Notes under the pieces: model-generated
Databases searched by the model: none
Seen by the model: only the letters and a program-made list of their open reading frames with translations
What the model was told of the DNA's origin: nothing
Shown: positions 3,100 through 56,867 of the stretch, one piece after another
Layout: each line of letters begins with the position of its first letter
Numbering within the stretch: position 1 is the first letter of the stretch
Position numbers and translations under genes: made by a program
NCBI GenBank assembly: GCA_963720465.1
Contig: OY970393.1
Span: 416,001 to 480,000, forward strand
Direction of reading: 5' to 3'
DNA: 64,000 bases
Origin: Methanobacteriota archaeon
Lineage (GTDB): Archaea; Halobacteriota; Bog-38; Methanoflorentales; Methanoflorentaceae

Positions 3100-3812
3100 T
3101 TTTGCCCTTCCCGGGTAACGATTCGCGTTTCGGCTTCCCCTCGTGATAGTCGATTTACCAGCTCATAAAAATCGTTTTGCAGTCCTGCAGGAAACCGGAC
3201 CACGCCGATCCAAGAGCCGTCTTTTTGCCACTCCCGTCTCACTATCGTGCCAAATCGCTGGATGGGGCCCTCCGATTTTGCGGCATAGTGGGCCGGCACC
3301 TTGACGGCAATCTTGACCTCCTCAAATCTGATAGGTATTAGTGGGCGGATTGCCTTCAAAGCGACGTTCACTTGCTCGTCGACACTTCTTAGGGGGTCTA
3401 TATTCACTTTTGCCTCTTCAAGTGCTTTTTCTATTCGCTGTGGCGGATGAGGCAGGCCCGTTTGGGGATTTATAGCATTCGCAGCTATGGTAGCAATAAC
3501 TTGCTTTCGCTTGTGCTCTTGGATCTTGCGCCTTTGCTGGGCGGTTAGATGTAGATCACCTTCTATGATGATCCGTTTTGCGATGGCTGCTGGATCCGTG
3601 GTACTAAACGCGTGCTGGAGGTTCTCGTCAGACGCTTTTTCCCCTTTTGATGCATCTTTAAATATCTCTTCAATCGCTAGAACAGCGTCCAGCTCAATAT
3701 CGTCGCCTTCTCGCAATCGTAAGGCATTTTCGGGGTCAGCGAGCACTTCAAAGTGTTCTCCTCCTCTCGCAAATCGAGCTACGACTGCCTTATCAAGAGA
3801 TACCATCTGCAC
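3096..3812 (-). CDS. Ribosome maturation factor SBDS/Sdo1
   Basis: GEHFEVLADP, INPQTGLPHPPQRIEKAL. Confidence 0.96.
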   Translation of the reverse strand: MQMVSLDKAVVARFARGGEHFEVLADPENALRLREGDDIELDAVLAIEEIFKDASKGEKASDENLQHAFSTTDPAAIAKRIIIEGDLHLTAQQRRKIQEHKRKQVIATIAANAINPQTGLPHPPQRIEKALEEAKVNIDPLRSVDEQVNVALKAIRPLIPIRFEEVKIAVKVPAHYAAKSEGPIQRFGTIVRREWQKDGSWIGVVRFPAGLQNDFYELVNRLSRGEAETRIVTREGQK

Positions 3813-8768: not shown

Positions 8769-11700
8769 CTATTCCGCTATTGAGAGTACCACTTGATGGC
8801 CGTCGATCGTCCACTCTTTTCGCAGTCTCGCGTTTTTAAGATCTCCTTTTACTATAGACGTCGCCAGCGTCTCATCTTTGAGATAAGAATCAAACGTTCG
8901 AATCGCTTGGGAGACTTCTGAAGGGCTACTATACGCCACCCTGATTTTTGCGGCATACGGTAAATCCAACTCCTTTCGCATGACCTGTATTCTTCTGACG
9001 ACTTCTCGAGCTAGTGATTCTTTCTGCAGTTCGGCTGTTATTTCGGTGTCCAAAAAAACGACCAGGCTGCTATCGTCGCTTTTAACAAAGCCGCACTTTA
9101 CTTTTTCTGAAATCGTCAGATCTTCCTTTGATAAACTAATAGGTGTTTGTCCGATTTCTAATTCGATGCCGCGATCCATTTTCTCAAGCACAGCGTGAGG
9201 CGCTAAAGTGCTGAGAACTTGTTTTATTGTGGGGGCCAGATCTTTGTATTTCGGTCCGACGCTGGCGAAATTTAGGCCAATTTCGTACGCGATAAATCTG
9301 TCTTTGTCTTTTTCAAAATCAATTGCCTTCACGTTCAGCTCATTTTTGATAATAGCCTGGAGTTCGTCACTCTCGAGTTCTGGTCCTATGCAAATAATTC
9401 TTCTCAGCGGTTGCCGTGTTTTGATGTGTGCTGACGACCGCGCGGCTCTTCCTGCTTCAACGATCCGCTTAGTATAATCCATATCGTGTTCCGCCTCGGG
9501 AAGCAGACGATCGGGTTGCGGGGCAGGAAACGCTTCGAGGTGAACGCTTTCTCTGGCCTCGGGAGCATATCGAGCGAGAGTCTTGTGCATGTACTCAGAA
9601 ATAAATGGCGCGAATGGGGCGATAAGCGCACTTAACGCCCACAAAGTCTCGAAAAGCGAGACGTAAGCAGATGTTTTGTCTAGGTCCTGTTCGTTCTTCC
9701 AGAAACGTCTCCTGGACGTTCTGACAAACCAGTTGCTTAGCTCGTCGATGAATGAGTCGATCGCCAGGGTCGCTAAGTAGTAGTCGTAACGGTCCATATA
9801 CTCGACCACGTTCGACACCAAACCATTTAGCCGGGAGAGCAGCCACCTGTCGATGATGTTTCTTTGCTCGTCCGCGAGCTGCCAGTTCACGTCATACTGA
9901 TCTATCTGAGCATACGTCGTAAAAAAGGAGAGGATGTGCCAAATCGTAGATATCGTCTTACGCTGAGATTCAATGATTGCGTCTTCATAGAACCTTTTGG
10001 GGGTTCCAGGATTGCCGGCGCCGAAAAGGTACCATCGGAGGCTATCAGCTCCCTCGTTGTTCAGGATTTGCCAAGGATCAACCGTATTCCCCTTGCTTTT
10101 TGACATCTTTCTACCATGCTCGTCCACGATGTGGCCCAGGCTTATTGCGGTGCTATACGCGTTCGATCCGAACACGGCGCTCGCTATTGCGTGCAGGCTA
10201 TAAAACCAGCCGCGCGTCTGATCAACACCTTCGGCTATAAAATCTACAGGCAGCTTGAAGTCTTCACTTCGCTCGAACGGATAGTGCAATGAAGCGAACG
10301 GGGCGCAGCCAGAATCGTACCAGCAGTCAATTACGTCGGGAATGCGGCGCATTATCTCAGCGCATTCGTCGCAAGGAAAAACAATGCGGTCGATATACGG
10401 CTTATGGATATCGCCTAGCGTGGCATCATCACGGATTCGCTGCTTCAGCTCATCGATGCTGCCGATAAACACTACGTGATTGTTACGGCATTTCCATATG
10501 GGCAGCGGGGTGCCCCAGTAGCGTTCCCTACTTAGCGCCCAGTCGCGTGCATTTTCGATGAAGTTTCCAAAGCGTCCGTGTTTAAGCGTTTTCGGATGCC
10601 ACTGGACCATTTCATTGTTGCGCACGAGTGCCTCGCGCATAGAGCTCATACGAATAAACCAGGCCCTTCGCGCATAGTACATAAGCGGCGCCTCGCAACG
10701 CCAACAAAAAGGATAGCTGTGTTCGTACATCTCGCGTTTGTACAGCAAGCCCCGACTTGCGAGGGTCTTCACTATTGTAGCATTCGCATCGGTGAAGAAC
10801 AGTCCACCGACCAACGGTACGTGATCGTCAAAGCGACCATCGGGTTTGACAAGCTGCACTAGAGGAAGGCCTTCGGCCTTTGCGACGTTAAAGTCATCTT
10901 CTCCGAACGCTGGAGCGATATGCACAATGCCCGTGCCCTCGGCAGTGTTAACAAACTCAGCGAGCACGACGGTTGGCTGCCCGTCGCTAAATAAGGGCAC
11001 ATATCGTGTGCCACTGAGCTCATTTCCTTGAAACTCAGCTACGACTGTGAAATGCAGCTCATCGCTCAGCACCGTCTCTAAAAGCTCCTTTGCGAAAATG
11101 AGAAACTGGTTCTTCACCTTCACCTTGACATACAAAATGTTAGGGTTGACGGCAAGCGCGACATTTGAAAGTAAAGTCCACGGCGTTGTTGTCCAAGCCA
11201 AAAAATAGGTCTCGTATTGATCCGACAAAGGAAACTTCACAAAAGCTGCTTCCTCAGTTATGGTTTCGTACCCTTGGGCTACTTCGTGCGTGCTAAGAGC
11301 GGTACCACAGCGGGGGCAGTAGGGAACGACATAATGTCCTTCATAGATAAGATCTCGCTCCCAAAGCCGTTTAAGCGACCACCATACTGATTCGATGTAG
11401 CGGGGGTCCATGGTCGTATACGGCGTAGTGAGATCAATGAAGAAGCCTATCCGCTTAGTCAATTCTGCCCACTCATCTATATGACTAAATACTGAACTGC
11501 GACAGACGTTGTTGAATCGTTCAATTCCATACCTCTCGATGCCCGCTTTATCCTCAAATTGAAGTTCTTTTTCCACAGAAATCTCGACTGGGAGTCCGTG
11601 ACAATCCCATCCGCTCACGCGGGGGACGTAGAAGCCTTGCATGCTTTTGTAGCGGAGAAACAGGTCTTTTATGACACGAGCGTACACGTGGTGAACCCCT

Positions 11701-44479: not shown

Positions 44480-45691
44480 ATGAACACCAAAACACTGGTC
44501 AAAAAGCTCAAAACCCGTGATGTGGATATCGACCCAAAAACGCTCACCAACTGGGGGAGGGAGGGGATAGTTTCCGGCTGCAAGATATACCCAGCTACCC
44601 GTCGGTCGCGGGGGCGTCCTTCAAAACGGCCTGAAGAGATAGACCACAGGGGGAAACCCGGCCGTTTCCACGCTGAATGGGATGATGAAGCGGTAGAAGA
44701 GGTTGCAGCGGTATGGGTAGTAAGCGGCGGCCGCAGACGACTCTCAAGGACGCGGATCGAGATGATAAAAACTGTAGCAAACCACGCCTATCAACATGCT
44801 TCCGCATTTTACGAGTTCCCTGCAGGCATTAGGGTCACTGGCCCGGAGCCAACATCGCAGTGGAATTGGCGTATGCTGAAAATGATGGTCTATCCCGACC
44901 GTGCGCTCAATGCGCAGGCGCAGAAGTGGATCGCCACGAAAGAGAAGGCGAAGCGCAACAAGAAGATCTCCGAACCGAAAAAGGTGCTCTTTTACTGGCA
45001 GTCACAGCCGGCCGACATAAGGGCGGTTCCCATAAGAGCGCGCAATGGTCACGAACTCCTCAGCAGCCTGAAACGCTTCCTACCAGATCTCTCTATGACG
45101 GGGCCTGGAGTTTCCGGTGCGCAGCCTCCGAGTTCTGGAGAGATTCCATTACTATTCCCACATGACAACGTGCGAATGAGTCGCCCATCTGAACATCCCG
45201 GATGGGAGCTTCGGCCGTCGAGGTGGAAGTTCGACTTGGAGCGGATTGAGCTTGAAGACGCAGACGTTGATGAGCTTGTTTTCCTCCTCGATGGCCGCGA
45301 CAGCCGGATAAAGGCGTGGTATGCCCCTTATGATCTGTACGATCCGGCCGTTGATTACGAGAAGAGAGCGGATGACCCCAGTCAGAGCGATCAGAATGGC
45401 GCTCGATGGGATGCTGGGATCGATTTGCTCGTGGACGAGTCCCGCTCGCTCTTTAGCGAGATCGGTCCCCTGCTCTCCGATATGAATCGCGAACACGTCA
45501 CCCGGAAGATTACATCTTCTGTGTTAACACTCGTCCCGACCGAGTTTATGCCTCTTATTCGATGGCTCCCGCTGCCGCGACAAGAAATAACGCCTTTTGT
45601 TTTTTTTACACCGTTACAGAGCATCTATCTACGAGACCAGCTACGCCATCTCTTGAAAATTACCAATGCCATTAGTAGTACGCCATTGTAG
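44480..45691 (+). CDS. MerR-like HTH protein of unknown family (paralog of 39872-40633)
   Basis: TLTNWGREGIV..RGRP..AEWD; KWIATKEK; ATATATA box ~44443. Confidence 0.75.
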   Translation: MNTKTLVKKLKTRDVDIDPKTLTNWGREGIVSGCKIYPATRRSRGRPSKRPEEIDHRGKPGRFHAEWDDEAVEEVAAVWVVSGGRRRLSRTRIEMIKTVANHAYQHASAFYEFPAGIRVTGPEPTSQWNWRMLKMMVYPDRALNAQAQKWIATKEKAKRNKKISEPKKVLFYWQSQPADIRAVPIRARNGHELLSSLKRFLPDLSMTGPGVSGAQPPSSGEIPLLFPHDNVRMSRPSEHPGWELRPSRWKFDLERIELEDADVDELVFLLDGRDSRIKAWYAPYDLYDPAVDYEKRADDPSQSDQNGARWDAGIDLLVDESRSLFSEIGPLLSDMNREHVTRKITSSVLTLVPTEFMPLIRWLPLPRQEITPFVFFTPLQSIYLRDQLRHLLKITNAISSTPL

Positions 45692-45957
45692 ACTGCTGGC
45701 CGTAGAGAGCACTTTCCGTATTGTGAGGATTACCGACGCCCGCAGCGCCTATCGTGGTAACGGCGCGTTACTTTGGCAGGTAGGATAGTATAGCGTGTTC
45801 CGTTGAGCCTCTCCGTAGCTCCTAGCTCGTTACTTCTTTTGGCTATTTAGAACGCGTGGAGAGGCCCGTTTCCGGACCACAATCAAATGACTAAAAGATA
45901 TTTGCCCCCAGACCAAAGGTAAAGAGTAAAGAATCGACGATCAGATCTCCTAATCCC

Positions 45958-46077
45958 TCACTCGTTCCTTACGGCGCTCGCAATTGCTAGTATCGCGATT
46001 CTGATGCCTTCAAGCTCTTTTGTATTGGCGTCAACCGCCCTAATGAGCTGCTGCAGTTCCGTAGTTAAGCCGTCCAT
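45958..46077 (-). CDS. Small amphipathic protein (39 aa)
   Basis: GGAGGTG SD 5 nt before ATG; MDGLTTELQQLIRAVDANTKELEGIRIAILAIASAVRNE. Confidence 0.6.
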   Translation of the reverse strand: MDGLTTELQQLIRAVDANTKELEGIRIAILAIASAVRNE

Positions 46078-46210
46078 GTGTGCACCTCCATTCTTTTTCG
46101 ATATGAGTGATTGCCTCAAAACATCGTCGACGAGGGCCCTCTGAGTTTTATTACACTTTCACTCTACTTTTAGACTAACTTTACCCAGGTATACCCTCTA
46201 TTTTGCCCCC

Positions 46211-46465
46211 ATGAACGATCTAGCAGAAGTCGATGAACTCATCCTGCAAATCGCAGACTACAAGAACGACTATGCCGATATGGCTGCCGAAAGACTTTTT
46301 AGGAAGTGCTCGACCAGGTGGGAACCTTATCAATACCTGCGAGATCGCGTGCATGATAGCTGGCTACCCAACAACGCACGCCAGCAATTACAACGAATTA
46401 TCAAAAGGATACAAGTGCAGATACATCAAAGTCGGGAATATGGGTGGGCGTATGAGTATTCATAA
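46211..46465 (+). CDS. Hypothetical protein
   Basis: Clean ATG ORF, helical composition. Confidence 0.5.
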   Translation: MNDLAEVDELILQIADYKNDYADMAAERLFRKCSTRWEPYQYLRDRVHDSWLPNNARQQLQRIIKRIQVQIHQSREYGWAYEYS

Positions 46466-46595
46466 GCGTATTAAAACCCAGCTAACACTCGCCGCTAGAA
46501 AAAAGGTCATTTTGCATTTAATATCGCCGTTAGAAAAAACCACACATGAAATATGTCATGCCGTCCATGCGTTAGCACCGAGTAGGAGGGAGAAA

Positions 46596-46871
46596 ATGCT
46601 CACCAAGGCGTTAGTTTTGACGGACGACGAGGCGGAGCTGCTAAGTCGCGCGCTTGAAGAAGTGAAGACCAAAACCTTTGAAGAGTTCCAGATTAGCCTA
46701 GATGATTTAGGTGCTCTCAACGCTCTTGTTTCACATTTCAGGGAAGCTGAGAAAGTAGAACCGGATAAGGAAGCACATCAAATATCCGTTAACCCATTGA
46801 GCAAACGCCTCTTTTTAGGGCACTTCATCGGTAGAGAAGGCGGTACAGACACAGCGGGCGGGTCGCAGTAG
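46596..46871 (+). CDS. Hypothetical protein whose 3' end runs into a repeat
   Basis: AGGAGG SD before ATG at 46596. Confidence 0.55.
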   Translation: MLTKALVLTDDEAELLSRALEEVKTKTFEEFQISLDDLGALNALVSHFREAEKVEPDKEAHQISVNPLSKRLFLGHFIGREGGTDTAGGSQ

Positions 46872-46885
46872 AGTTGACCTCGCAC
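46787..46885. repeat. Degenerate ~97-bp direct repeat, copy 1
   Basis: CGTTAACCCATTGA.CAAACGCCT..GGGCAC..ATCGGTAGAGAA..CTCGCAC shared with 47482-47576. Confidence 0.85.
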
Positions 46886-46989
46886 GAGCAACTGACACAA
46901 GTAGATTGCAGCACTCAGGCCACATAGCGCGCAAATCCGGGCGAAAGGACTTATTCTTGCACGTTAAATGACGTGACAGGTGACAAACC

Positions 46990-47298
46990 ATGCTTTGCTT
47001 GGTATATATTGAGGTTCCCGCAGAAGTAGGCACTCGCGTAGATTTCGAAGAACAGGGCCCCGGGCAAATCATCGGGTATATGATGAATAGGTTCGCGCCC
47101 GAGGCGGTGTATATAAAGGCCGGCACGCGTGCTAGTTTTATGGTTGCCGATCTGAATGAGACACAGATGACGGAGCTTATGCTTATTGTGTCGAAGAATT
47201 TCGGCACGTATCCGGAGTTCACGGCTCTCATTCCCGCAGCGGCTATTCCCGAAATGGCTGGAAAGGCGATAGAAGCGGTGAAGAAGGCACAAATTTAG
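46990..47298 (+). CDS. Small protein, GYD/DUF3303-like
   Basis: AGGTGA SD; F.PEAVY...GTR..FMV.DL pattern. Confidence 0.65.
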   Translation: MLCLVYIEVPAEVGTRVDFEEQGPGQIIGYMMNRFAPEAVYIKAGTRASFMVADLNETQMTELMLIVSKNFGTYPEFTALIPAAAIPEMAGKAIEAVKKAQI

Positions 47299-47481
47299 CG
47301 TGGTCTTTACGAAAGTCGTCGATCGAATCAGTTTCACCCAATCCATGGCCGATCCCAAAATGACATTCTAGACTGGCTATCGACCGTGCTGGCAGTCTTG
47401 GGCAGGCCAGACGGCACAGAAAGAGAGTGATACATCAAAAAATAGCGGTGATCTCAAAATTACGGTAGCGCGTACGTAGCT

Positions 47482-47576
47482 CGTTAACCCATTGAACAAA
47501 CGCCTTTTTCTGGGGCACATTATCGGTAGAGAATGTAGCACGGACGCAGCGAGCGAGTCTCAGGGCTGACTCGCAC
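47482..47576. repeat. Degenerate ~97-bp direct repeat, copy 2
   Basis: See 46787-46885; itself flanked by ~35-bp direct repeats. Confidence 0.85.
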
Positions 47577-47668
47577 TGCAGGCCCTGGGTACTCTTGTCG
47601 GCAGGCCTGACGCAGAAAGAGAGTAGTCTGAAAAACACGCTTACAGCTATTGGCGGCTAACTATAGGG

Positions 47669-47857
47669 CTAACATTCTGATCGCCACCTAGCCACCATAG
47701 CGTCATATTCTCGCTGGGTGTTTTCAAATACGCGATCGCCTTCTATCTCTTTATGGCAAGTCGCGCAAACGGAGCTTGACGCTTGTAAACGCACTTTATG
47801 TACCGCAGGTTTACCACAGTACAGGCACGGCTCACCTTCTTTCTCGTTATTTCGCAT
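47669..47857 (-). CDS. Small zinc-finger protein
   Basis: CLYC..CATC; GAGGTGA SD. Confidence 0.7.
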   Translation of the reverse strand: MRNNEKEGEPCLYCGKPAVHKVRLQASSSVCATCHKEIEGDRVFENTQREYDAMVARWRSEC

Positions 47858-48063
47858 GTCACTCACCTCTAATAAGGGCTAATTTTTCCACGGCGCTCAT
47901 AATCTTACACAACTCTCCCCATGATCAAAACGGCGCGTTAGCATAGACGTCTTGCAGGTCCCGGTCGTTGAAGCAGATACAATGGCGCGTATATAGCCAC
48001 TAATCTAGCATCCGCTGGGCGCGACTACACATAAACTACGGCTCCCCCCGACGAGACACAGAT

Positions 48064-48759
48064 TCACTCTTCAAGGGGCGTAACGAAGCAGGATGCCAGC
48101 TTGGTGCTAATGAGCTTCTGTTCGTGGAAAAGGCGCGAGGTGAGGTGGTACATGCCTTCTTCACTCGCGTAAAGCTCGCTTACGAATCGCTTCGTGCCGC
48201 CTCCTGCGATGAAGTCGATATCGAGCACGTCCATGAGCGTGTGCGATTTCGAAGGGGGAGTTGCGGCGATCTCAAGCCGTAGATTCGACACGTCGCGGTG
48301 AGCGTGCACGACCGTCTCCGTCTCGATGGTTTCTTCATAGGCCCAGTAGGGCCGATTCACGAAGAAGGTCTGGATCTCCGCGGGATCTTCTACGAGTCGA
48401 ACCTCGTAATAGGGAGAGTACCAGTTCACGAAAGCACCGTCGCGGTACGCCGTGACGTGCAGATAGACCCATCCTGTGTGGTTCGCAAAGACGTGGAAGT
48501 TGAGCGCTGCCATGCCGTTAGGGCGCAATTCTTGCACGAAATGAAAAGAGCCGCTTGCCAAAACGTCGAGATCGTGCGAGTTAAAGGTATACAGCGTTGC
48601 GCTCACGTCGACGAGGGGCTCCGTTGATACGTTCCTCAGCTTGACGGTGATCCAGTGGCGCCCCCGGTCGAGCACCTCGGGCGTAACGGTTGCCTCGAAG
48701 GGATGCTTGCGTCGTTCTTCCGTGGCGATTCTCTTCTCTTCTTTCTTTTCGTCGGTCAT
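48064..48759 (-). CDS. Hypothetical protein, tandem beta-sandwich-like
   Basis: Alternating beta-strand pattern (ITVKLRNVS, GMYHLTSRLF). Confidence 0.65.
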   Translation of the reverse strand: MTDEKKEEKRIATEERRKHPFEATVTPEVLDRGRHWITVKLRNVSTEPLVDVSATLYTFNSHDLDVLASGSFHFVQELRPNGMAALNFHVFANHTGWVYLHVTAYRDGAFVNWYSPYYEVRLVEDPAEIQTFFVNRPYWAYEETIETETVVHAHRDVSNLRLEIAATPPSKSHTLMDVLDIDFIAGGGTKRFVSELYASEEGMYHLTSRLFHEQKLISTKLASCFVTPLEE

Positions 48760-49185
48760 AGTATCATCAAATTGAGTAGCGCACGGAGGGGGATAAGGCA
48801 TACGCAAGGAAAAAACAGGTCACGAAGGAGAAACACGCTACGTTATCATAGCTCGGGCCCCCGAAAATTACCACACTAGAACTGCATGTTATTCTTTTAT
48901 TTCGAACAAACCCCTTATACGTCCCCTTTTTGCGAGGGGAACAACTCTTTTTTAGTTAAGGGTCGCTCTTCTTGCAACCTGCGCTTACATTGCACTTACG
49001 CGATCTCGCGCGAAAAGTTCGGAGTATTAATTTGTCGTTTTTTTTGTTGTTTGCTTTTGCTGCCTACGCCATTTGGAGCGTGATAAGGCGCAGTGTTGTT
49101 GAGTCACGAGTAACGATTCGAAACACAGAATTATATCTCACAAATGCGCACACTTTTGCACAATCGAGCAGAGGTAAAACTGACC

Positions 49186-49650
49186 ATGGCAAATCTATCA
49201 CACGTCGAAATGCTCCTGCAGGGAGTACCTGTTTGGAACCAATGGAGGGCGGCGCATCCGGAGATACGGCCAGATCTCAGCGGGGCGTACCTTGCCGGGG
49301 CTGACCTCACCGAGGCGGATCTCATCAAAGCTGACCTCAGAGGAGCTGACCTCACTCAAACGAGCCTTCACGCGGCTGACCTCACCGAGGCTGACCTCAC
49401 CGAGGCTGACCTCCAAGAGGCTGACCTTACTGGAGCAACCCTTATCAAGGCGGATCTTACGGGGGCTGAAGTCAACGAGGCCGACCTTTCTGACGCTAAC
49501 CTCACCAAGGCGAACCTCACCAATGCTGCGTTTCGAGGCGCTAAACTTGTCAAAGCGGACCTCAGTGAGACGACCTGTATCGGCGCCGACCTGACCGGGA
49601 CCGACGTGACGGGGGCGGACACGACGGGCGCCATCTTCGAGCATCCTTGA
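49186..49650 (+). CDS. Pentapeptide repeat protein
   Basis: GVPVWNQWR..PDLSGA followed by ADLxx repeats. Confidence 0.93.
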   Translation: MANLSHVEMLLQGVPVWNQWRAAHPEIRPDLSGAYLAGADLTEADLIKADLRGADLTQTSLHAADLTEADLTEADLQEADLTGATLIKADLTGAEVNEADLSDANLTKANLTNAAFRGAKLVKADLSETTCIGADLTGTDVTGADTTGAIFEHP

Positions 49651-50075
49651 TCGGGCGAGATGGATCCGGACGAAGCGTTACGCGAGTCCCCTGAATTTCT
49701 CTGCCGTCGTGCCTCCGGAATGACCGACGCCGTTTCGGCCCGCCATTCCTGAGCATAAGTGAACAGCACCCGCATCAAAGTTTTGTTGTTGCGCTTCGGC
49801 GACGAGCAAGCAGTCATATTTGCCAGGCGGAGTAAAACTCCTTAAAATGCACCTGCCCTTCGTGTCAGCTGTGAATGGTCAAAGAGGCAGATGTAGGCTG
49901 TGCGATAGCGAACGTGGTGAGAAATGACGTCTTGCAAAGAGTACGGGCATAAGTTAGGCTTCTTAGAACACGCAGCCGATGGCCTTTGCAGAGATGCTCA
50001 TTCTGTAACCTCACCGTCTGTGCATGAAGCGGGTCACTGACGCTGTAACTTAGATAAAGATTAGACACCTTATGC

Positions 50076-50522
50076 ATGACTCGTACTACTGCTGAGGGCG
50101 ATGCCGTGCCAGAGGAGGAAATAGATGCGAACCTTGTGCCCCTCGTCAAAGTACTCAACACCCTTCCGTGTGTTACCACGGTGTGCTGCTGTGGTGGACA
50201 TCCCGGCGAACGTGACCACGGGAAGTGGCCAGAAGGAACGTGGTATGTCACGCTAGAGATTGCACAAAAAGAGCAGGGGTGGCGTACGCTGGCGTTTCTT
50301 GGATGGGCAATCAACCGCGAGTATCGTAAGGTAGGGCATCACGTCTTCTTTTACCCTGACGCATTGCCGCCTCGCGCTGTCGGCGACGAGGCCACACTCG
50401 GTTTCCAGCTGGAGGGATACCGATACGAGCGTCCTGACGAGCTCGCGAACTGGATAACGAAGATGCAACACAGCGACGAAAGCTTCGCACGTAGTACACA
50501 GGGAAAACCGCCACGTAACTAA
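50076..50522 (+). CDS. Hypothetical protein with TYW3-like N-terminal motif
   Basis: EIDANLVPLVKVLN...TTVCCCGGH. Confidence 0.65.
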   Translation: MTRTTAEGDAVPEEEIDANLVPLVKVLNTLPCVTTVCCCGGHPGERDHGKWPEGTWYVTLEIAQKEQGWRTLAFLGWAINREYRKVGHHVFFYPDALPPRAVGDEATLGFQLEGYRYERPDELANWITKMQHSDESFARSTQGKPPRN

Positions 50523-50919: not shown

Positions 50920-51216
50920 TTGGCTGAAAAAGAACGCATCTTTGTCGCGCCGAATGCATTCTTGTATCACGACAAGAAAAACTACACCATCGAAGTGGAA
51001 CTTCCCGGCGCAGATAAAAAGGACATCAAAGTTGAAGCTGGGGAAAACGGGTTTTGTCTCTCGGCGCCTCGAGATGATATCGAGTATGCCGGGTGCTGGA
51101 CACTCTCCCATACTATAAATCCGGAAGCGGCAACGGCCACGTTCGAAAATGGCCTTCTGAAGGTGACCATACCGCTAGCGGAACGGCTTGAGGGCATCAA
51201 GGTACCCATAAAATAG
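50920..51216 (+). CDS. Small heat shock protein (Hsp20)
   Basis: VELPGADKKDI, ATFENGLLKVTIP; GGTGA SD before TTG. Confidence 0.92.
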   Translation: MAEKERIFVAPNAFLYHDKKNYTIEVELPGADKKDIKVEAGENGFCLSAPRDDIEYAGCWTLSHTINPEAATATFENGLLKVTIPLAERLEGIKVPIK

Positions 51217-52735: not shown

Positions 52736-53032
52736 GTGCCTGAAAAAGAACGGATCCCGGTCGCACCAGATGCAGTTTTCTATCATGATACAGAAACTTA
52801 TACCATTGTAGTGGAACTGCCTGGCGTGCACAAGAAGGATATCGAATTTGAGGCGATGGAAAATGGGTTTTGTGTCACGGCACCCAGAGACGATATCAAG
52901 TATAGCGGCTGCTGGGTACTTACCCACAAAACCGATCCTGCAAAAGCAACGGCGACGTTCTCGAATGGACTTTTAAAAGTGACCGTGCCGTTAGCTGAGC
53001 GAGTTGCAGGCTTTATGGTACCCATAAAATAA
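52736..53032 (+). CDS. Small heat shock protein (Hsp20), paralog of 50920-51216
   Basis: VELPGVHKKDI, ATFSNGLLKVTVP. Confidence 0.92.
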   Translation: MPEKERIPVAPDAVFYHDTETYTIVVELPGVHKKDIEFEAMENGFCVTAPRDDIKYSGCWVLTHKTDPAKATATFSNGLLKVTVPLAERVAGFMVPIK

Positions 53033-53459
53033 ATTACCCTTTCGTCAATGCGCTTTTGTTACCCGACGGCGTCATTCCTGAGTTAGACATAGAGGGTTCG
53101 CAGATAAAGGGTACGCAACAGGGAGCACGATGCGTGAATTCCAGACAGCACGCGACAACGGCGAGAGATAAAAACTCTTTTTGACCAAATGGACGCGAAG
53201 TAGGTTTGCGATGATCCTAGGCGCTTTGCGTGCGAAGGGCCTGCCACACATTACGAAAGTGAGTAACCCCTAGCATGCGCTCGGAGCGGCTGAAGATTCG
53301 AGCAAAAGGTGCTCTATCACAGGATTGACGTGCAAATTCCGACGATGTCAAAAAATGTGATGATATCTCCCTGTTGCAAGACCTGCACACAACGAACATC
53401 GCGTTGCACGCGGTGTGCATAAAAAAGAGACGGGGAGGTCCCCCGGCTACACTCACGCT

Positions 53460-53939
53460 TTATTCAGGCGCAAGCACGGAATCAATAACGTGAATCACGC
53501 CATTATTGCATTCAATATTCGCCTGAATGACTATGGCATCGTCCACCGTTAGCTCTTCAAATGCCGCGATTTCATCGTCTTCGACAATGACATCATCTTC
53601 AACGGCCACCGTGTCCTCCTCGATGACCGCTGTCTCTGTTGCAATCGTCAGCTTCGCACCCTGAACGGTCTTTGCTGTCGTCATTTTCATCAGGTCGGTT
53701 GCCATGTATTTGCCGGCCACTACGTGATAGGCAAGCACGGCAGTGAGCCTGTCTTTGTCTTTTAACAGTTCGTCTACCGTGCCGGCTGGCAGCTCGGCAA
53801 ACGCGTCATCGTTCGGAGCAAATAGCGTAAAGGGCCCAGGGCCGCTCAAGGTATCGATGAGACCGGCTGCCGCCTTCAGTGCTGATACCAGCATTGTGAA
53901 GGAACCATCATCGATTGCTGTCTCTATAATATTTTTCAT
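53460..53939 (-). CDS. Fasciclin (FAS1) domain protein with acidic insertion, no signal peptide
   Basis: FTLFAPNDDAF, LAYHVV, NGVIHVIDSVL. Confidence 0.92.
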   Translation of the reverse strand: MKNIIETAIDDGSFTMLVSALKAAAGLIDTLSGPGPFTLFAPNDDAFAELPAGTVDELLKDKDRLTAVLAYHVVAGKYMATDLMKMTTAKTVQGAKLTIATETAVIEEDTVAVEDDVIVEDDEIAAFEELTVDDAIVIQANIECNNGVIHVIDSVLAPE

Positions 53940-54477
53940 ATTTCCTTGCTTCCTTTTTCACAAGCGCAGCAGGTGGAACGCATCACGTGCATCCGCGTGC
54001 GCTAAAGATCTCCTATCCCCATTTAAGCTTACGCTATTAAAAGCAAATGGTCTTGCAATTCGAGGCCGCAAAGCGATGCTCCTCGCTCGGACGGAACGCG
54101 ATTTCTGGGCTGCGTTTAAACGGGCTGCACCCATCGATTTTTTTATAACGCCTGGCTAGTCATACTTCAAATGCGGAAAAGGATTTTTTTGTGACTGGAA
54201 TTCAGGCCCTGGAACGATGCCGCTAGCCCTTAAGAAGCAGCAGCTGTGTATGAAGGGTGAACGAACGATTTTTTGGGTTTCTTCGAGGCGTTTCGGATTA
54301 CGACGCTAAGGAAAGGAAGCGTCAGCAGAACATTTCGGCTCTTCTGTTAACAGCGCGTTATGAATAGCGTGCTTTTTTACCTCCAAAGGGCCAGTTGAAC
54401 ATAAGAAGAGTCGAGCTGCGAGCGTGAGGCTCACAACGGAAGAAAAAAGCATAATCAAACACGCTCGAATTATCGAC

Positions 54478-54660
54478 AAAAAAGTGAAGTTGGACTCTAT
54501 AGGATATGTGAATAGCGAAAGTGATCCCTTCCAATGGCGTGTTTGAGAGCCAAGGCGAGTTCGCCCAATGCTTCAGAGCAGAGATTTCTCTGCCCCGAAA
54601 GCTCTACTCCAAAAGCCATTGGAAGCTACCTTTTCCTCCACACATCCTATAGAGCGTACC
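54478..54660 (-). ncRNA. Candidate novel ~183-nt structured ncRNA
   Basis: Nested inverted repeats (16, 11, 5, 12 and 5 bp), wobble pairs only on the minus strand, BRE/TATA upstream, T6 tract downstream. Confidence 0.7.
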
Positions 54661-54682
54661 TTAATTATATGCGCCTCTTCGA

Positions 54683-54694
54683 TTTATACCTTTC
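54683..54694 (-). promoter_or_regulatory. BRE/TATA promoter of the candidate ncRNA
   Basis: GAAAGG-TATAAA; predicted start at ~54660. Confidence 0.65.
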
Positions 54695-55189
54695 ATGAGA
54701 AGTGAGCGAATGCTGCCGACAAGCCCAAAAAAATGCCATACTAGGCACAAAGTGCTTTCTGACTTTGATTTTTATGAAGAGGGGGAGCCGGACTTCCTCA
54801 CAACCAAACTCTAAAACACCGACCTTTTTCAAGTGCTGCAGCACGAATGTAGCGTCCTTATCGCGCGGTCATTTCTGGCTCTGCTACTCCCAGAAACCGA
54901 GTACCATCCAGCTACTGTGCCGCTCAAATAGGATTCTCCTGCGCACTATTGTGATTTAGAGCAATTGCCGGCGTGCGCTTTGGCACCTGCTCCGAAAACC
55001 ACACGGATTAGCGTGCCAAATGCCTCTAGAAGCGAGCAATTGCGACTGCGTAAATATTTCAGTCTATTCGCCCTGAGAGGTATTTTGCGCTATTTTGGCT
55101 GCAATCAAAGCCTCCGAATTTGGACTATCTTGGGAGAGATCAAGCGAAGAAACGCTTAAAGCATAACCCATCATTATAACGTGTTGCGC

Positions 55190-55342
55190 ATGGGTATACT
55201 CAATTCAGCAATCCTGTTGATAGCTTTTATCTTCCTGCTATTCACATTCTGGCCAGGAGCACTCGTCGTAGTCGTGGTGTGGGTGTATTTGCAGTTTATA
55301 CGAAAGCCTCGGACCACGAGCACCACAGAAGGACAGCGATAG
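55190..55342 (+). CDS. Small membrane protein (50 aa)
   Basis: MGILNSAILLIAFIFLLFTFWPGALVVVVVWVYLQFIRKPR..; GAAACG-CTTAAA promoter-like element upstream. Confidence 0.6.
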   Translation: MGILNSAILLIAFIFLLFTFWPGALVVVVVWVYLQFIRKPRTTSTTEGQR

Positions 55343-55706
55343 GGCGCCACGACAGAAAAAGGAACGAGGCGTTATCAGCATTTTTGTTGCCCGATCTTTT
55401 ATTTAACCGGCTAGCCCCACTGTGAAACAGCAATTTTTTTATGACCTAACGACATAAATCTCCGACACTAACGGTCGCGCGAAAAGGCAGCAAATGTCTG
55501 TTTAAGAAGAATTATATATTATTGATGGAATAAAAACTAATGTTAAATATTGCTGCCGTTGCTTCTTACGGGTCGAACGGACGCGTTGCCAGCAAAGCGG
55601 TTTTTTGAAAGCCGAATTGCCAGGGCAAAGCAAAGCGAGCGAAAAAAATCCAGAGCGTAAGCCTTAAATCTAGTGTGTTCTATGTGCTGTGACAGTGAGT
55701 GATAAC

Positions 55707-55853
55707 ATGATCGAGATTGAAACCGTACCACAGGAAACCGCATACTGCGAGCGGTGCGGCAACCCAATTATTATCAAGACGTGGTTTGCTAAATTGTGTC
55801 ACGAGTGCTCACGTGCTGAGTTCAAGGAGCATTTCGAATCGTTCGCATCGTGA
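55707..55853 (+). CDS. Small zinc-finger protein (48 aa), absent from ORF track
   Basis: MIEIETVPQETAYCERCGNPIIIKTWFAKLCHECSRAEFKEHFESFAS. Confidence 0.7.
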   Translation: MIEIETVPQETAYCERCGNPIIIKTWFAKLCHECSRAEFKEHFESFAS

Positions 55854-56031
55854 TCGGAAGTCGCATACGGCGGCCTCGCTTTTTTTGGGGTGTCCGGCTT
55901 TGCCAGCCTTAGAGTTTTACTAGCCTTAGCGTAGTCGGCGCACGCTATTTTTTGTGCTTCAAGCGTTTTCAGTTGCGTGAAAAATGGCAACAACCCTTTT
56001 AAATCGCCGCGTCGTGGTTCACTCGGTGAAT

Positions 56032-56412
56032 ATGAAAGATTCAGAACTGATAAGCGAATGCAAAGCGACCGGGCGCGCGCTCAACTATGATGTCCAGTCG
56101 GCCGTCGACATCGGAGCTGGCGAAATCGACGTCGTTTGGACTAAGAAAGAGCATCCAAATCTCCCGACGTTCAAGCTCGGATTCTTCTTGTGTCCCACGG
56201 GAGGCGAAATCGCCACGGACTTCCTCACGCAGAGCGTCGCAAAGGCGCTGCTCTCTGTGTGTGACAAAGCGATCTTCCTCGTGCGCGATGACGCTTCATT
56301 GAAGTCGGTGAGAGGCAAGATTCAAGCGCTTGACGCAATCGGTGGGGTGCTGCAGCTCAAGAAATATGCCCACGCGATTACTTCAGACGAGCTGCTCGGA
56401 GGGATTAGGTAA
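56032..56412 (+). CDS. Hypothetical protein, possible degenerate restriction-endonuclease-like fold
   Basis: G..L.Y....GEIDVVW pattern without ExK. Confidence 0.65.
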   Translation: MKDSELISECKATGRALNYDVQSAVDIGAGEIDVVWTKKEHPNLPTFKLGFFLCPTGGEIATDFLTQSVAKALLSVCDKAIFLVRDDASLKSVRGKIQALDAIGGVLQLKKYAHAITSDELLGGIR

Positions 56413-56423
56413 GAGGTGAAAAA

Positions 56424-56867
56424 ATGCGTATAGAACGCGGCAAACAAGCAAATCTGAAGGAGCTTAACGAGGATTTGTACCTGGAAGCGAACGTCCAGCT
56501 GTACCCTGTAGACAAGGACGCTACGATCAACGTCTACGGCATCTTGACGACTGAGAACAACGTCGTAATCAACGGCTCAATTGAGTGCTCTGAGGCTTTT
56601 TTCGGCGATAACTGTCACGTCAAGGGAACAGTAGTTACCGGCGGGATCAAGACGGGGAGCGGATTTAAGGCGCACCACGTTGAAGCCGGAGAACAGGCCG
56701 ACATCGGCAGCGACTCGCAAGTCAACAAGATCGACGCGGTTGGAGACGTGACGATCGGCAGCAATTCGCGCGTTCGGCACGCGATCAGCGAGCGTGGCCA
56801 GATTATCCTCGCTGCAGGAGCTGTTGTCGACGTCGCAGAAGCGGCTCAAGGCACGAAAAAAGCGTAG
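56424..56867 (+). CDS. Beta-helix (bactofilin/acyltransferase-like) protein
   Basis: Repeated IG.NSxV / V.G.I motifs; GAGGTGA SD. Confidence 0.7.
   Translation: MRIERGKQANLKELNEDLYLEANVQLYPVDKDATINVYGILTTENNVVINGSIECSEAFFGDNCHVKGTVVTGGIKTGSGFKAHHVEAGEQADIGSDSQVNKIDAVGDVTIGSNSRVRHAISERGQIILAAGAVVDVAEAAQGTKKA

Follow-up and report, generated by a model that had tools for sequence, protein, structure and literature searches.

Introduction

Among the described systems that come closest to the RNA considered here, 6S RNA has a large open central bubble between its closing and its terminal stem and acts as an open-promoter mimic; some bacteria have two 6S RNAs. OLE, raiA, GOLLD and ROOL are orphan structured RNAs that came out of comparative genomics, and guide RNAs are known by their motifs, i.e. 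an ACA box 3 nt past a stem, a pseudouridylation pocket and a K-turn in H/ACA RNAs, and C and D boxes in C/D RNAs. Here, we describe a predicted gene for a structured noncoding RNA of ~180 nt, which we call T1, on the minus strand of a 64,000-nt stretch of DNA (the window) from a methanogen of the Bog-38 lineage. To our knowledge, no Bog-38 methanogen has been cultured, and the RNA biology of the group is uncharted. A literature search for work linking 'Methanoflorens' with 'non-coding RNA' found none, and among the papers listed by further searches none concerns this RNA.

We read 54478-54660 (minus strand) as a separate transcription unit whose product is a stable, highly structured noncoding RNA of ~180 nt from an undescribed family confined to one class-level lineage of peat methanogens, and we give this reading a probability of roughly 0.55. 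That the locus is a genuine structured RNA gene, with expression as a prediction, is very probable in its own right, and T1 is most likely the first member of a lineage-restricted RNA family of archaea that had not been described before. Like OLE, raiA, GOLLD and ROOL, T1 combines a supported fold, strong conservation and a lineage-restricted distribution with a function that cannot be deduced from sequence; unlike them, it is archaeal, lacks a conserved partner gene and has no match among all Rfam families, and it is much smaller than GOLLD or ROOL.

A predicted gene with its own promoter and terminator

The predicted transcript and its flanking signals, all on the minus strand, are as follows.

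54478..54660, minus strand: predicted T1 transcript, ~181-183 nt, based on fold, conservation and the G-U strand signal
G54660/G54659, minus strand: predicted T1 start, from promoter geometry
within the T6 run 54478..54483, minus strand: predicted T1 end, from the T-run
54689..54694, minus strand: GAAAGG, resembling a B recognition element (BRE), directly upstream of the TATA box; read from the sequence
54683..54688, minus strand: TATA box TATAAA, centred ~26 nt ahead of the predicted start
54662..54671, minus strand: A/T-rich proximal stretch ATATAATTAA, between TATA box and start
54478..54483, minus strand: T6 run, predicted oligo-T terminator, 10-11 nt past the terminal stem P1

BRE and TATA boxes are archaeal promoter elements, and oligo-T runs terminate archaeal transcription. 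A stand-alone minus-strand RNA gene, with GAAAGG-TATAAA at 54694-54683 as its promoter and T6 at 54483-54478 as its terminator, had been proposed in an earlier, sequence-only reading of the window, and the proposal is supported by the conserved elements: both signals can be read in the sequence, and the BRE, the TATA box, their spacing from the stem and the T-run persist across 16 aligned homologues, with single-base variants of BRE/TATA in 3 of the 16. In other words, the features by which a stand-alone archaeal small-RNA gene is recognized, BRE/TATA at the right distance and an oligo-T run, are found here and are both conserved. TATA-like boxes at a similar distance also stand before tRNA genes in the same genome. 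The proximal A/T-rich stretch, whose GTATA core is partly conserved in the aligned homologues, may be a proximal promoter element. A scan for bacterial promoters found nothing at the T1 locus, as expected because the host is an archaeon.

T1 and its paralogue T2 (below) both lie in stretches poor in open reading frames (ORFs). Around T1, 1.8 kb of the window (54160-55984) hold no ORF of more than 85 aa; this interval is 79-84% conserved, in close relatives only. A terminator-like hairpin with a T-run at 54748-54727 (minus strand) ends just upstream of the T1 promoter, and another small transcript may end there.

Fold and helices

The minus strand of the locus (54478-54665) folds into one closed structure with a minimum free energy of -86.9 kcal/mol, compared with -49.5 ± 3.7 kcal/mol for its dinucleotide shuffles (n = 200; z = -10.1; 0 as good). 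The plus strand reaches -66.5 kcal/mol (z = -6.7), and random 180-nt segments of the same genome (n = 300) give -49.8 ± 9.4 kcal/mol, with a minimum of -80.0 kcal/mol. The helices of T1 are listed in order from the terminal stem inward.

54638-54655 / 54494-54511, minus strand: P1, terminal stem, 18 bp, pairing the two ends of the RNA (RNAfold)
54626-54637 / 54512-54527, minus strand: P2, irregular helix, almost sequence-invariant, formerly described as a bubble
54632-54635 / 54517-54520, minus strand: P2a, GAAA/UUUC, 4 bp
54628-54630 / 54523-54525, minus strand: P2b, GGU/AUC, 3 bp
54616-54625 / 54528-54537, minus strand: P3, 10 bp (11 bp in the single-sequence fold)
54606-54613 / 54542-54550, minus strand: P4, junction helix, register uncertain, no covariation
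54570-54602, minus strand: P5, long hairpin with a tip of variable sequence and length
54553-54566, minus strand: P6, small hairpin GGGCG-AANN-CGCCU, almost invariant

How does this fold compare with the one drawn earlier? All of the pairings described there as nested inverted repeats are present; the outer arms, which a repeat search places at 54495-54510 / 54639-54654 (16 nt, 94% complementary as DNA), are extended by RNAfold to the 18 bp of P1. The three-way junction with two hairpins is also found, at the apical end of T1, where the variable hairpin P5 (54570-54602) stands beside the invariant hairpin P6 (54553-54566). The junction helix is present as well, but the register proposed for it (54546-54550/54601-54605) is an alternative to the one used here (54606-54613/54542-54550), and covariation does not decide between them. 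What had been described as a 17/13-nt internal bubble has to be redrawn: most of it is paired in the consensus fold (4 + 3 bp), purine-rich mismatches separate P2a from P2b, and the whole is an irregular, sequence-invariant helix instead.

Conservation, covariation and strand

By BLAST, T1 has homologues in 13 of the genus's 17 other genomes, at 82-96% identity. A metagenome scan, in which 80 loci were taken from 108 matching stretches, was combined with a covariance model to collect 106 family members, 78 of them distinct. These relatives are metagenome-assembled genomes or metagenome contigs throughout, and the E-values of the covariance models built here are rough. The distinct sequences belong to the following types.

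T1, 37 distinct sequences: orthologues of the window RNA
T2, 35 distinct sequences: diverged paralogue
Sister-genus form, 3 distinct sequences: T1-like
Long variants, 2 distinct sequences: 228-233 nt
T3, 1 distinct sequence

Across the 37 distinct T1 sequences, the mean column identity is 90% and pairwise identity ranges from 75 to 100%. Of 2216 pair cells, 98.1% hold standard pairs, a share that falls to 31-50% on sliding the 3' partners by 1-3 columns, and the covariation score is 0.117 versus 0.096 ± 0.003 in shuffles, a value reached by 0 of 500. P3 is the helix with the clearest covariation; one of its pairs shows six pair types (GC, GU, UA, UG, CG and AU), another has changed from UA to CG three times, yet another from GC to AU once, and 6 of the 7 P3 pairs shared across family types have changed on both sides. 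P1, which reads CUCUAU(A/G)GG ... CC(U/C)AUAGAG family-wide, is paired in 99.1% of cells on the T1 set, where 11 of its 18 pairs vary via G-U, and across family types one of its pairs exchanges A-U for G-C (8 vs 8 sequences). G-U/A-U and C-G/U-G exchanges occur in P5, whose loop differs in length by 1-3 nt between species. At the family level, 92.1% of the cells of 27 pairs shared across types are paired (40-59% when slid), 11 of the 27 carry double-sided changes (reached by 8 of 500 shuffles), and the covariation score is 0.279 versus 0.187 in shuffles (reached by 0 of 500). Compensatory and G-U-mediated changes in homologues are thus seen both within T1 and across the types of the family, in keeping with the RNA gene first proposed.

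The T1 alignment also assigns the strand. Its fold reaches -119.1 kcal/mol in the forward sense, with 366 G-U against 24 A-C cells, compared with -92.8 kcal/mol in reverse, with 140 G-U against 89 A-C cells, and each of the 37 distinct T1 sequences folds better forward. The excess of G-U over A-C, together with the forward folding, identifies the minus strand of the window as the RNA strand; the earlier observation that non-Watson-Crick positions in the stems of the window sequence are G-U on the minus strand is borne out across the 37 orthologues.

A coding function for the locus has a negligible chance of being right. A 40-aa ORF at 54497-54619 (minus strand) exists and could be translated as a small-protein gene, and it is intact in 15 of the 37 distinct T1 sequences; it is, however, cut to 4-9 aa in 12 and lacks its ATG in 10, differences of 1-2 nt in P5 loop length between species shift its frame, and the substitution pattern of T1 tracks base pairs and not codons. 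The comparison over all 37 sequences refutes the coding reading as a conserved feature.

The invariant runs of the T1 alignment lie in the irregular helix P2 and the hairpin P6. P2 holds GGAUCAC, a 7-nt stretch that recurs unchanged at the 16S rRNA 3' end (GGAUCACCUCCU, read upstream of the spacer tRNA-Ala), which brings up a second possibility, namely that T1 is a base-pairing riboregulator or anti-Shine-Dalgarno mimic whose GGAUCAC would pair with ribosome-binding sites of the GGUGAUC type and block or tune translation. The motif is almost invariant across the 37 T1 sequences, T1 adjoins HSP20-like genes, and the neighboring HSP20-like gene carries GGTGATC 5 nt ahead of its GTG start codon. 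Within the RNA, nevertheless, three of the seven bases are engaged in pairs (AUC with GGU), the chance of a 7-nt match to a given 12-mer within 184 nt is, by a rough estimate, ~5-7%, and neither T2 nor the sister-genus form has GGAUCAC, which is thus not a feature of the family. We consider this possibility unlikely.

An RNA family with several types

The T1 covariance model finds T2 in the same genome, at G000:C1:1752731-1752898 (minus strand; equivalent to L049:1501-1668). Common to all types are the terminal stem sequence, a GUGGAG...AAA stretch, P3 and the junction strand CCUUG.CU.U.AAAC.C.CC, of which the 3' strand of P4 is part, and the central domains differ from type to type. Every type also has a GAAAG plus TATA-like promoter at the same spacing, plus a T-run; in T2, promoter and T-run lie on the strand homologous to that of T1, and the T-run follows 33 of 35 aligned copies. 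Among the variants, the two long forms (228-233 nt), L058:2229-2461 (minus strand) and L137:11983-12210 (plus strand), have an expanded central domain, and L044:900-1067 (plus strand) and L097:1033-1192 (plus strand) represent the third type, T3, and a degenerate T2-like copy that lacks a clear TATA box.

A preprint equates the family Bog-38 with Ca. Methanoflorentaceae, or Rice Cluster II, and describes these hydrogenotrophic methanogens as being among the most abundant in northern peatlands (10.1101/2025.08.21.671631). The class, order and family of the host genome coincide and comprise 24 genomes in two genera. By a broader covariance model, the genus's 17 other genomes include 13 with T1, 14 with T2 and 16 with some family member; one of these genomes carries T3 and a long variant in place of T1/T2, and one, 59% complete, has no family member. 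The T1-like form occurs in 2 of the 6 sister-genus genomes. Beyond the class, 140 other genomes of the phylum gave one marginal match (E = 0.009, 21 bits). A pattern search of species-representative genomes gave 28 contigs, 25 of which hold a true family member by the covariance model. As far as it was found, the family is restricted to one class-level lineage, probably Bog-38/Methanoflorentaceae (Rice Cluster II).

Given these types and this spread, is T1 an archaeal counterpart of 6S RNA, as the sequence-only reading had tentatively suggested? Such a counterpart would be a rod-shaped RNA that sits on RNA polymerase or on TBP/TFB as a promoter mimic and damps transcription, perhaps under stress. 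T1 shares with 6S RNA (RF00013 and relatives) a length of ~180 nt, a strong promoter of its own, a long closing stem that seals both ends, an interrupted rod and the presence of two paralogues in one genome; additionally, the gene adjoins stress genes, and a UAUA in the terminal stem ~12 nt ahead of the first internal loop is suggestive only. However, no Rfam 6S model matches T1, even at E <= 10, the supposed bubble is mostly paired and sequence-invariant where 6S RNA has a large open loop, the apical domain is a three-way junction and not a terminal stem, and T2 has UAUG in place of the UAUA. The archaeal host has no sigma factors, and the narrow, patchy distribution of the RNA (2 of 6 sister-genus genomes, one marginal match in 140 phylum genomes, not universal in its own archaeal family) is unlike that of a core transcription regulator. 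We know of no 6S-type transcription-damping regulator in archaea, and the papers listed by our literature search on archaeal 6S-like regulators were solely bacterial 6S work. Measured by model match, an open central bubble and near-universal presence in the host group, T1 falls outside 6S RNA, and we therefore regard the 6S analogy as improbable. Slightly more so is the related idea of an archaeal 6S/B2-type regulator that docks on the transcription machinery and is possibly stress-linked, in which the conserved, UAUA-bearing terminal stem and the irregular helix would take the place of promoter DNA.

Comparison with other known RNAs

Searches with established models gave no identity for T1. 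At the gathering score, none of 4227 Rfam families matches anywhere in the window; at E <= 10, five weak matches appear over 53900-56000, none of them overlapping 54478-54662; and a scan of six paralogue and sister-genus loci returned no family that overlaps the RNAs. ARAGORN predicts 0 tRNA or tmRNA genes in 53000-56500, and the RNAs of the signal recognition particle and of RNase P lie elsewhere in the genome (C1:2168682-2168994 and C1:654285-654574, respectively), which also marks the host as an archaeon. The statement that T1 is not a tRNA, 5S, signal recognition particle or RNase P RNA, made at first from size and motifs, is thereby supported. The only match in the six loci is a CRISPR repeat (CRISPR-DR7, 43.5 bits) at L047:124-160, in one sister-genus locus, where it lies ~1.3 kb upstream of the RNA.

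Several further identities were considered and set aside. The Y RNA/Ro60 system offers a partial parallel, since the paralogues there likewise share a sequence-conserved terminal stem and differ in a variable inner module, and the RNAs end in a U-run; T1 is, however, about twice as large, matches no Rfam Y RNA and has no tRNA-like module (by eye and by the ARAGORN tRNA scan), and the genome has no TROVE/Ro60 gene, PF05731 being without a match there while control genomes matched as expected. A Y RNA is therefore rejected, as is a retron noncoding RNA, for PF00078 (reverse transcriptase) has no match anywhere in the genome. For H/ACA or C/D guide RNAs, no Rfam guide family matches; by eye, UCC-AAC follows the stem with no conserved ACA, and no pair of C and D boxes is present in T1.

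Genomic context

Three features of the window downstream of T1 are needed in what follows.

52736..53032, plus strand: HSP20-like gene (98 aa, alpha-crystallin domain only), convergent with T1; Pfam HSP20 E = 5.6e-6
53460-53939, minus strand: fasciclin gene, between the HSP20-like gene and T1 in the window
54352..54378, plus strand: terminator-like hairpin and T-run, inside the conserved block downstream of T1

Within the genus, the position of T1 is syntenic, and T1 and T2 both adjoin paralogous 98-aa HSP20-like genes, whose proteins are 72% identical. An HSP20-like gene lies downstream of T1 on the opposite strand at 48 of 59 loci (at distances of 92-1833 nt; the remaining 11 loci have less than 2 kb of flank) and upstream of T2 on the opposite strand at 26 of 41 loci, in 22 of them at 304-341 nt. 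The flanks of the T1 and T2 loci showed no similarity to each other, and no lost HSP20 gene was found upstream of T1. The genome has four HSP20 paralogues, at 50920-51213 and 52736-53032 of the window (both plus strand) and at G000:C1:1673764-1674054 and 1753234-1753527; two of them lie next to T1 and T2, and a sliding-fold scan near the other two found nothing comparable to T1. These 98-aa paralogues have almost no N-terminal arm and carry a C-terminal VPIK. In more distant genomes, the HSP20 region directly adjoins the conserved RNA block (~54340-54790), and the terminator-like site at 54352..54378 is probably the former 3' terminus of the HSP20-like gene, cut off from that gene by the inserted fasciclin gene.

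Could T1 simply be a cis element of these genes, i.e. an antisense or untranslated part of extended HSP20 transcripts (at the 3' side for T1, at the 5' side for T2) that controls convergent transcription, for example, or acts as a thermosensor? T1 is convergent with the HSP20-like gene and as near to it as 92-119 nt, T2 is divergent from it at the nearly fixed distance of 304-341 nt at 22 loci, and it is the T2 strand co-directional with the HSP20 gene that bears the G-U-tolerant signature. Set against this, the structured T1 strand is antisense to the HSP20 gene, the plus-strand terminator-like site lies ~100 nt before T1, T1 retains a promoter and a terminator of its own, the intervening fasciclin gene in the window leaves T1 unchanged, and no HSP20 gene was found in the examined flanks of the sister-genus copies and the variant types. 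A cis role is, in our view, about as improbable as the 6S/B2-type regulator. A further suggestion, that the HSP20-like protein is an obligate partner of the RNA, is not supported, since the protein is found in genomes that lack the RNA; the HSP20 link is a lead, not a partnership.

The neighborhood of T1 shows signs of rearrangement. Partial copies of T1 at L100:1066-1162 (G004:C128) and L099:206-275 (G007:C110) are both broken inside P6, one consisting of the promoter and the 5' ~100 nt followed by unrelated sequence and the other of unrelated sequence followed by the 3' ~70 nt, and two metagenome contigs end within the T1 gene, at model positions 105 and 119. These broken copies may reflect a polymorphic insertion at P6; a Pfam search of the ORFs beside the partial copies returned no match and no mobile-element genes. 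In L111, an orphan copy of the last ~60 nt of T1 (3572-3631) lies ~6.1 kb upstream of a full T1 (9769-9954) in the same orientation, and orphan 3' fragments occur likewise in L127, L141 and L143. The interval in L111, the one locus scanned, holds genes for an amino-acid permease, a Staygreen protein and three fasciclin-domain proteins, with no integrase; fasciclin genes likewise accompany T1 in the window and one of the long variants. The T1 neighborhood looks like a hot spot for accessory-gene insertion. Further from T1, five ORFs (149-403 aa) in 44480-50314 of the window were scanned, four of which have no Pfam match; the fifth, at 49144-49650, encodes a pentapeptide-repeat protein.

This pattern recalls integration at tRNA and tmRNA genes, where partial gene copies likewise mark points of rearrangement and orphan 3' fragments flank accessory genes, here ~6 kb of them; T1 differs in that it is neither a tRNA nor a tmRNA, no integrase lies beside the fragments, and the orphan fragment is upstream, not downstream, of the intact gene. 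Might the locus then be an element that works as DNA, such as a miniature inverted-repeat transposable element (MITE), a recombination or attachment site, or a replication-related palindrome? Its long inverted repeat, the partial gene copies at rearrangement points and the orphan 3' fragments ~6.1 kb upstream, flanking accessory genes, would be consistent with that idea. A double-stranded DNA site, however, would not give the asymmetry of 366 G-U to 24 A-C cells, and the conserved promoter and T-run, the covariation in internal helices, the presence of one close copy per genome and a search that found no integrase or transposase near the locus argue against it as well; the partial copies are better explained by a stable-RNA gene acting as a recombination hot spot, as tRNA genes do. 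A DNA-level role is accordingly very improbable. A MITE or other repeated mobile element, which the sequence-only reading had named as one outcome that would undo it, is rejected in particular: a BLAST search with the locus yields a single full match in the 2.31-Mb single-contig genome, a scan of the genome for the terminal-stem motif recovers only T1, T2 and two unrelated chance pairs, and no tandem repeat was found at the T1 locus. That reading had also entertained an antitoxin or decoy RNA of an island, a suggestion that is not supported, as the locus is syntenic across the genus and a scan of 20 window ORFs (44-64 kb) found no integrase or other mobile-element genes.

Evidence that weighs against the proposed RNA gene family

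A number of observations count against our reading of T1 as an independently transcribed member of a lineage-restricted RNA family. The start, end, abundance and expression of T1 are all predictions. Covariation within T1 is thin, with double-sided changes in 3 of 60 pairs, because the sequences are 75-100% identical; the T1 sequences are also kin, so that the shuffle tests overstate their support. T2 poses a particular difficulty. In 33 of 35 distinct sequences it is the reverse complement that gives the better fold, the alignment fold reaches -94.5 in reverse versus -77.7 forward, with 206 G-U cells in the reverse fold versus 53 in the forward one, and at the variable helix positions A-C outnumbers G-U several-fold in the forward sense. 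T1 and T2 thus seem to be under structural selection on opposite strands; no conserved reverse-strand promoter for T2 was seen by eye.

The distribution and the neighborhood raise further doubts. The RNA was not found in 4 of the 6 sister-genus genomes (72-91% complete, one of them closed at 2.7 Mb) and is therefore not essential for the lineage. The survey of neighboring genes gave no conserved neighbor or protein partner across the whole family; the neighbors include methyltransferases and fasciclin, SRPBCC, cupredoxin, Nramp, GyrI-like and MFS proteins. The HSP20-like protein occurs in 22 of the 24 genomes of the class, some of them without the RNA, so that it is not an obligate partner; in one sister-genus genome, the HSP20-like gene does not adjoin the RNA, and their being neighbors may simply reflect synteny in a single genus.

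A possible mode of action

What might an RNA of this kind do? We propose, at slightly under even odds and by reasoning from sequence and predicted structure, that T1 is a protein-bound scaffold or decoy, i.e. a stable ribonucleoprotein. Transcription would be driven by the promoter and would run from G54660/54659 to the T-run, and the 18-bp stem would then seal the two ends, shielding the RNA from exonucleases. The RNA would act as a protein-bound particle, either a scaffold or a decoy that sequesters a protein, and not via long antisense pairing. The non-Watson-Crick parts and one junction strand are conserved beyond the needs of pairing, and the P5 tip drifts freely; together with the sealed ends, the invariance of P2, P6 and the junction strand alongside that drifting tip suggests recognition by a protein. 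The paralogues keep the stem and the junction motif and swap the rest, which suggests a shared core partner and different accessory modules. Within the genus, both paralogues lie beside small HSP20-type genes, a weak pointer to a stress role; that the function of T1 is stress-linked is, on the whole, doubtful.

Outlook

A sequence-conserved, promoter-driven family with at least two copies per genome and no match in Rfam is a candidate for a new ribonucleoprotein or regulator. If it is true that the RNA binds the transcription or translation machinery, it would fill a gap in archaea, for which no 6S-type regulator is known. If it is merely a lineage-specific regulatory RNA, it would still be a new family worth an Rfam entry, and in either case the RNA could be used as a specific marker of this lineage in metatranscriptomes.

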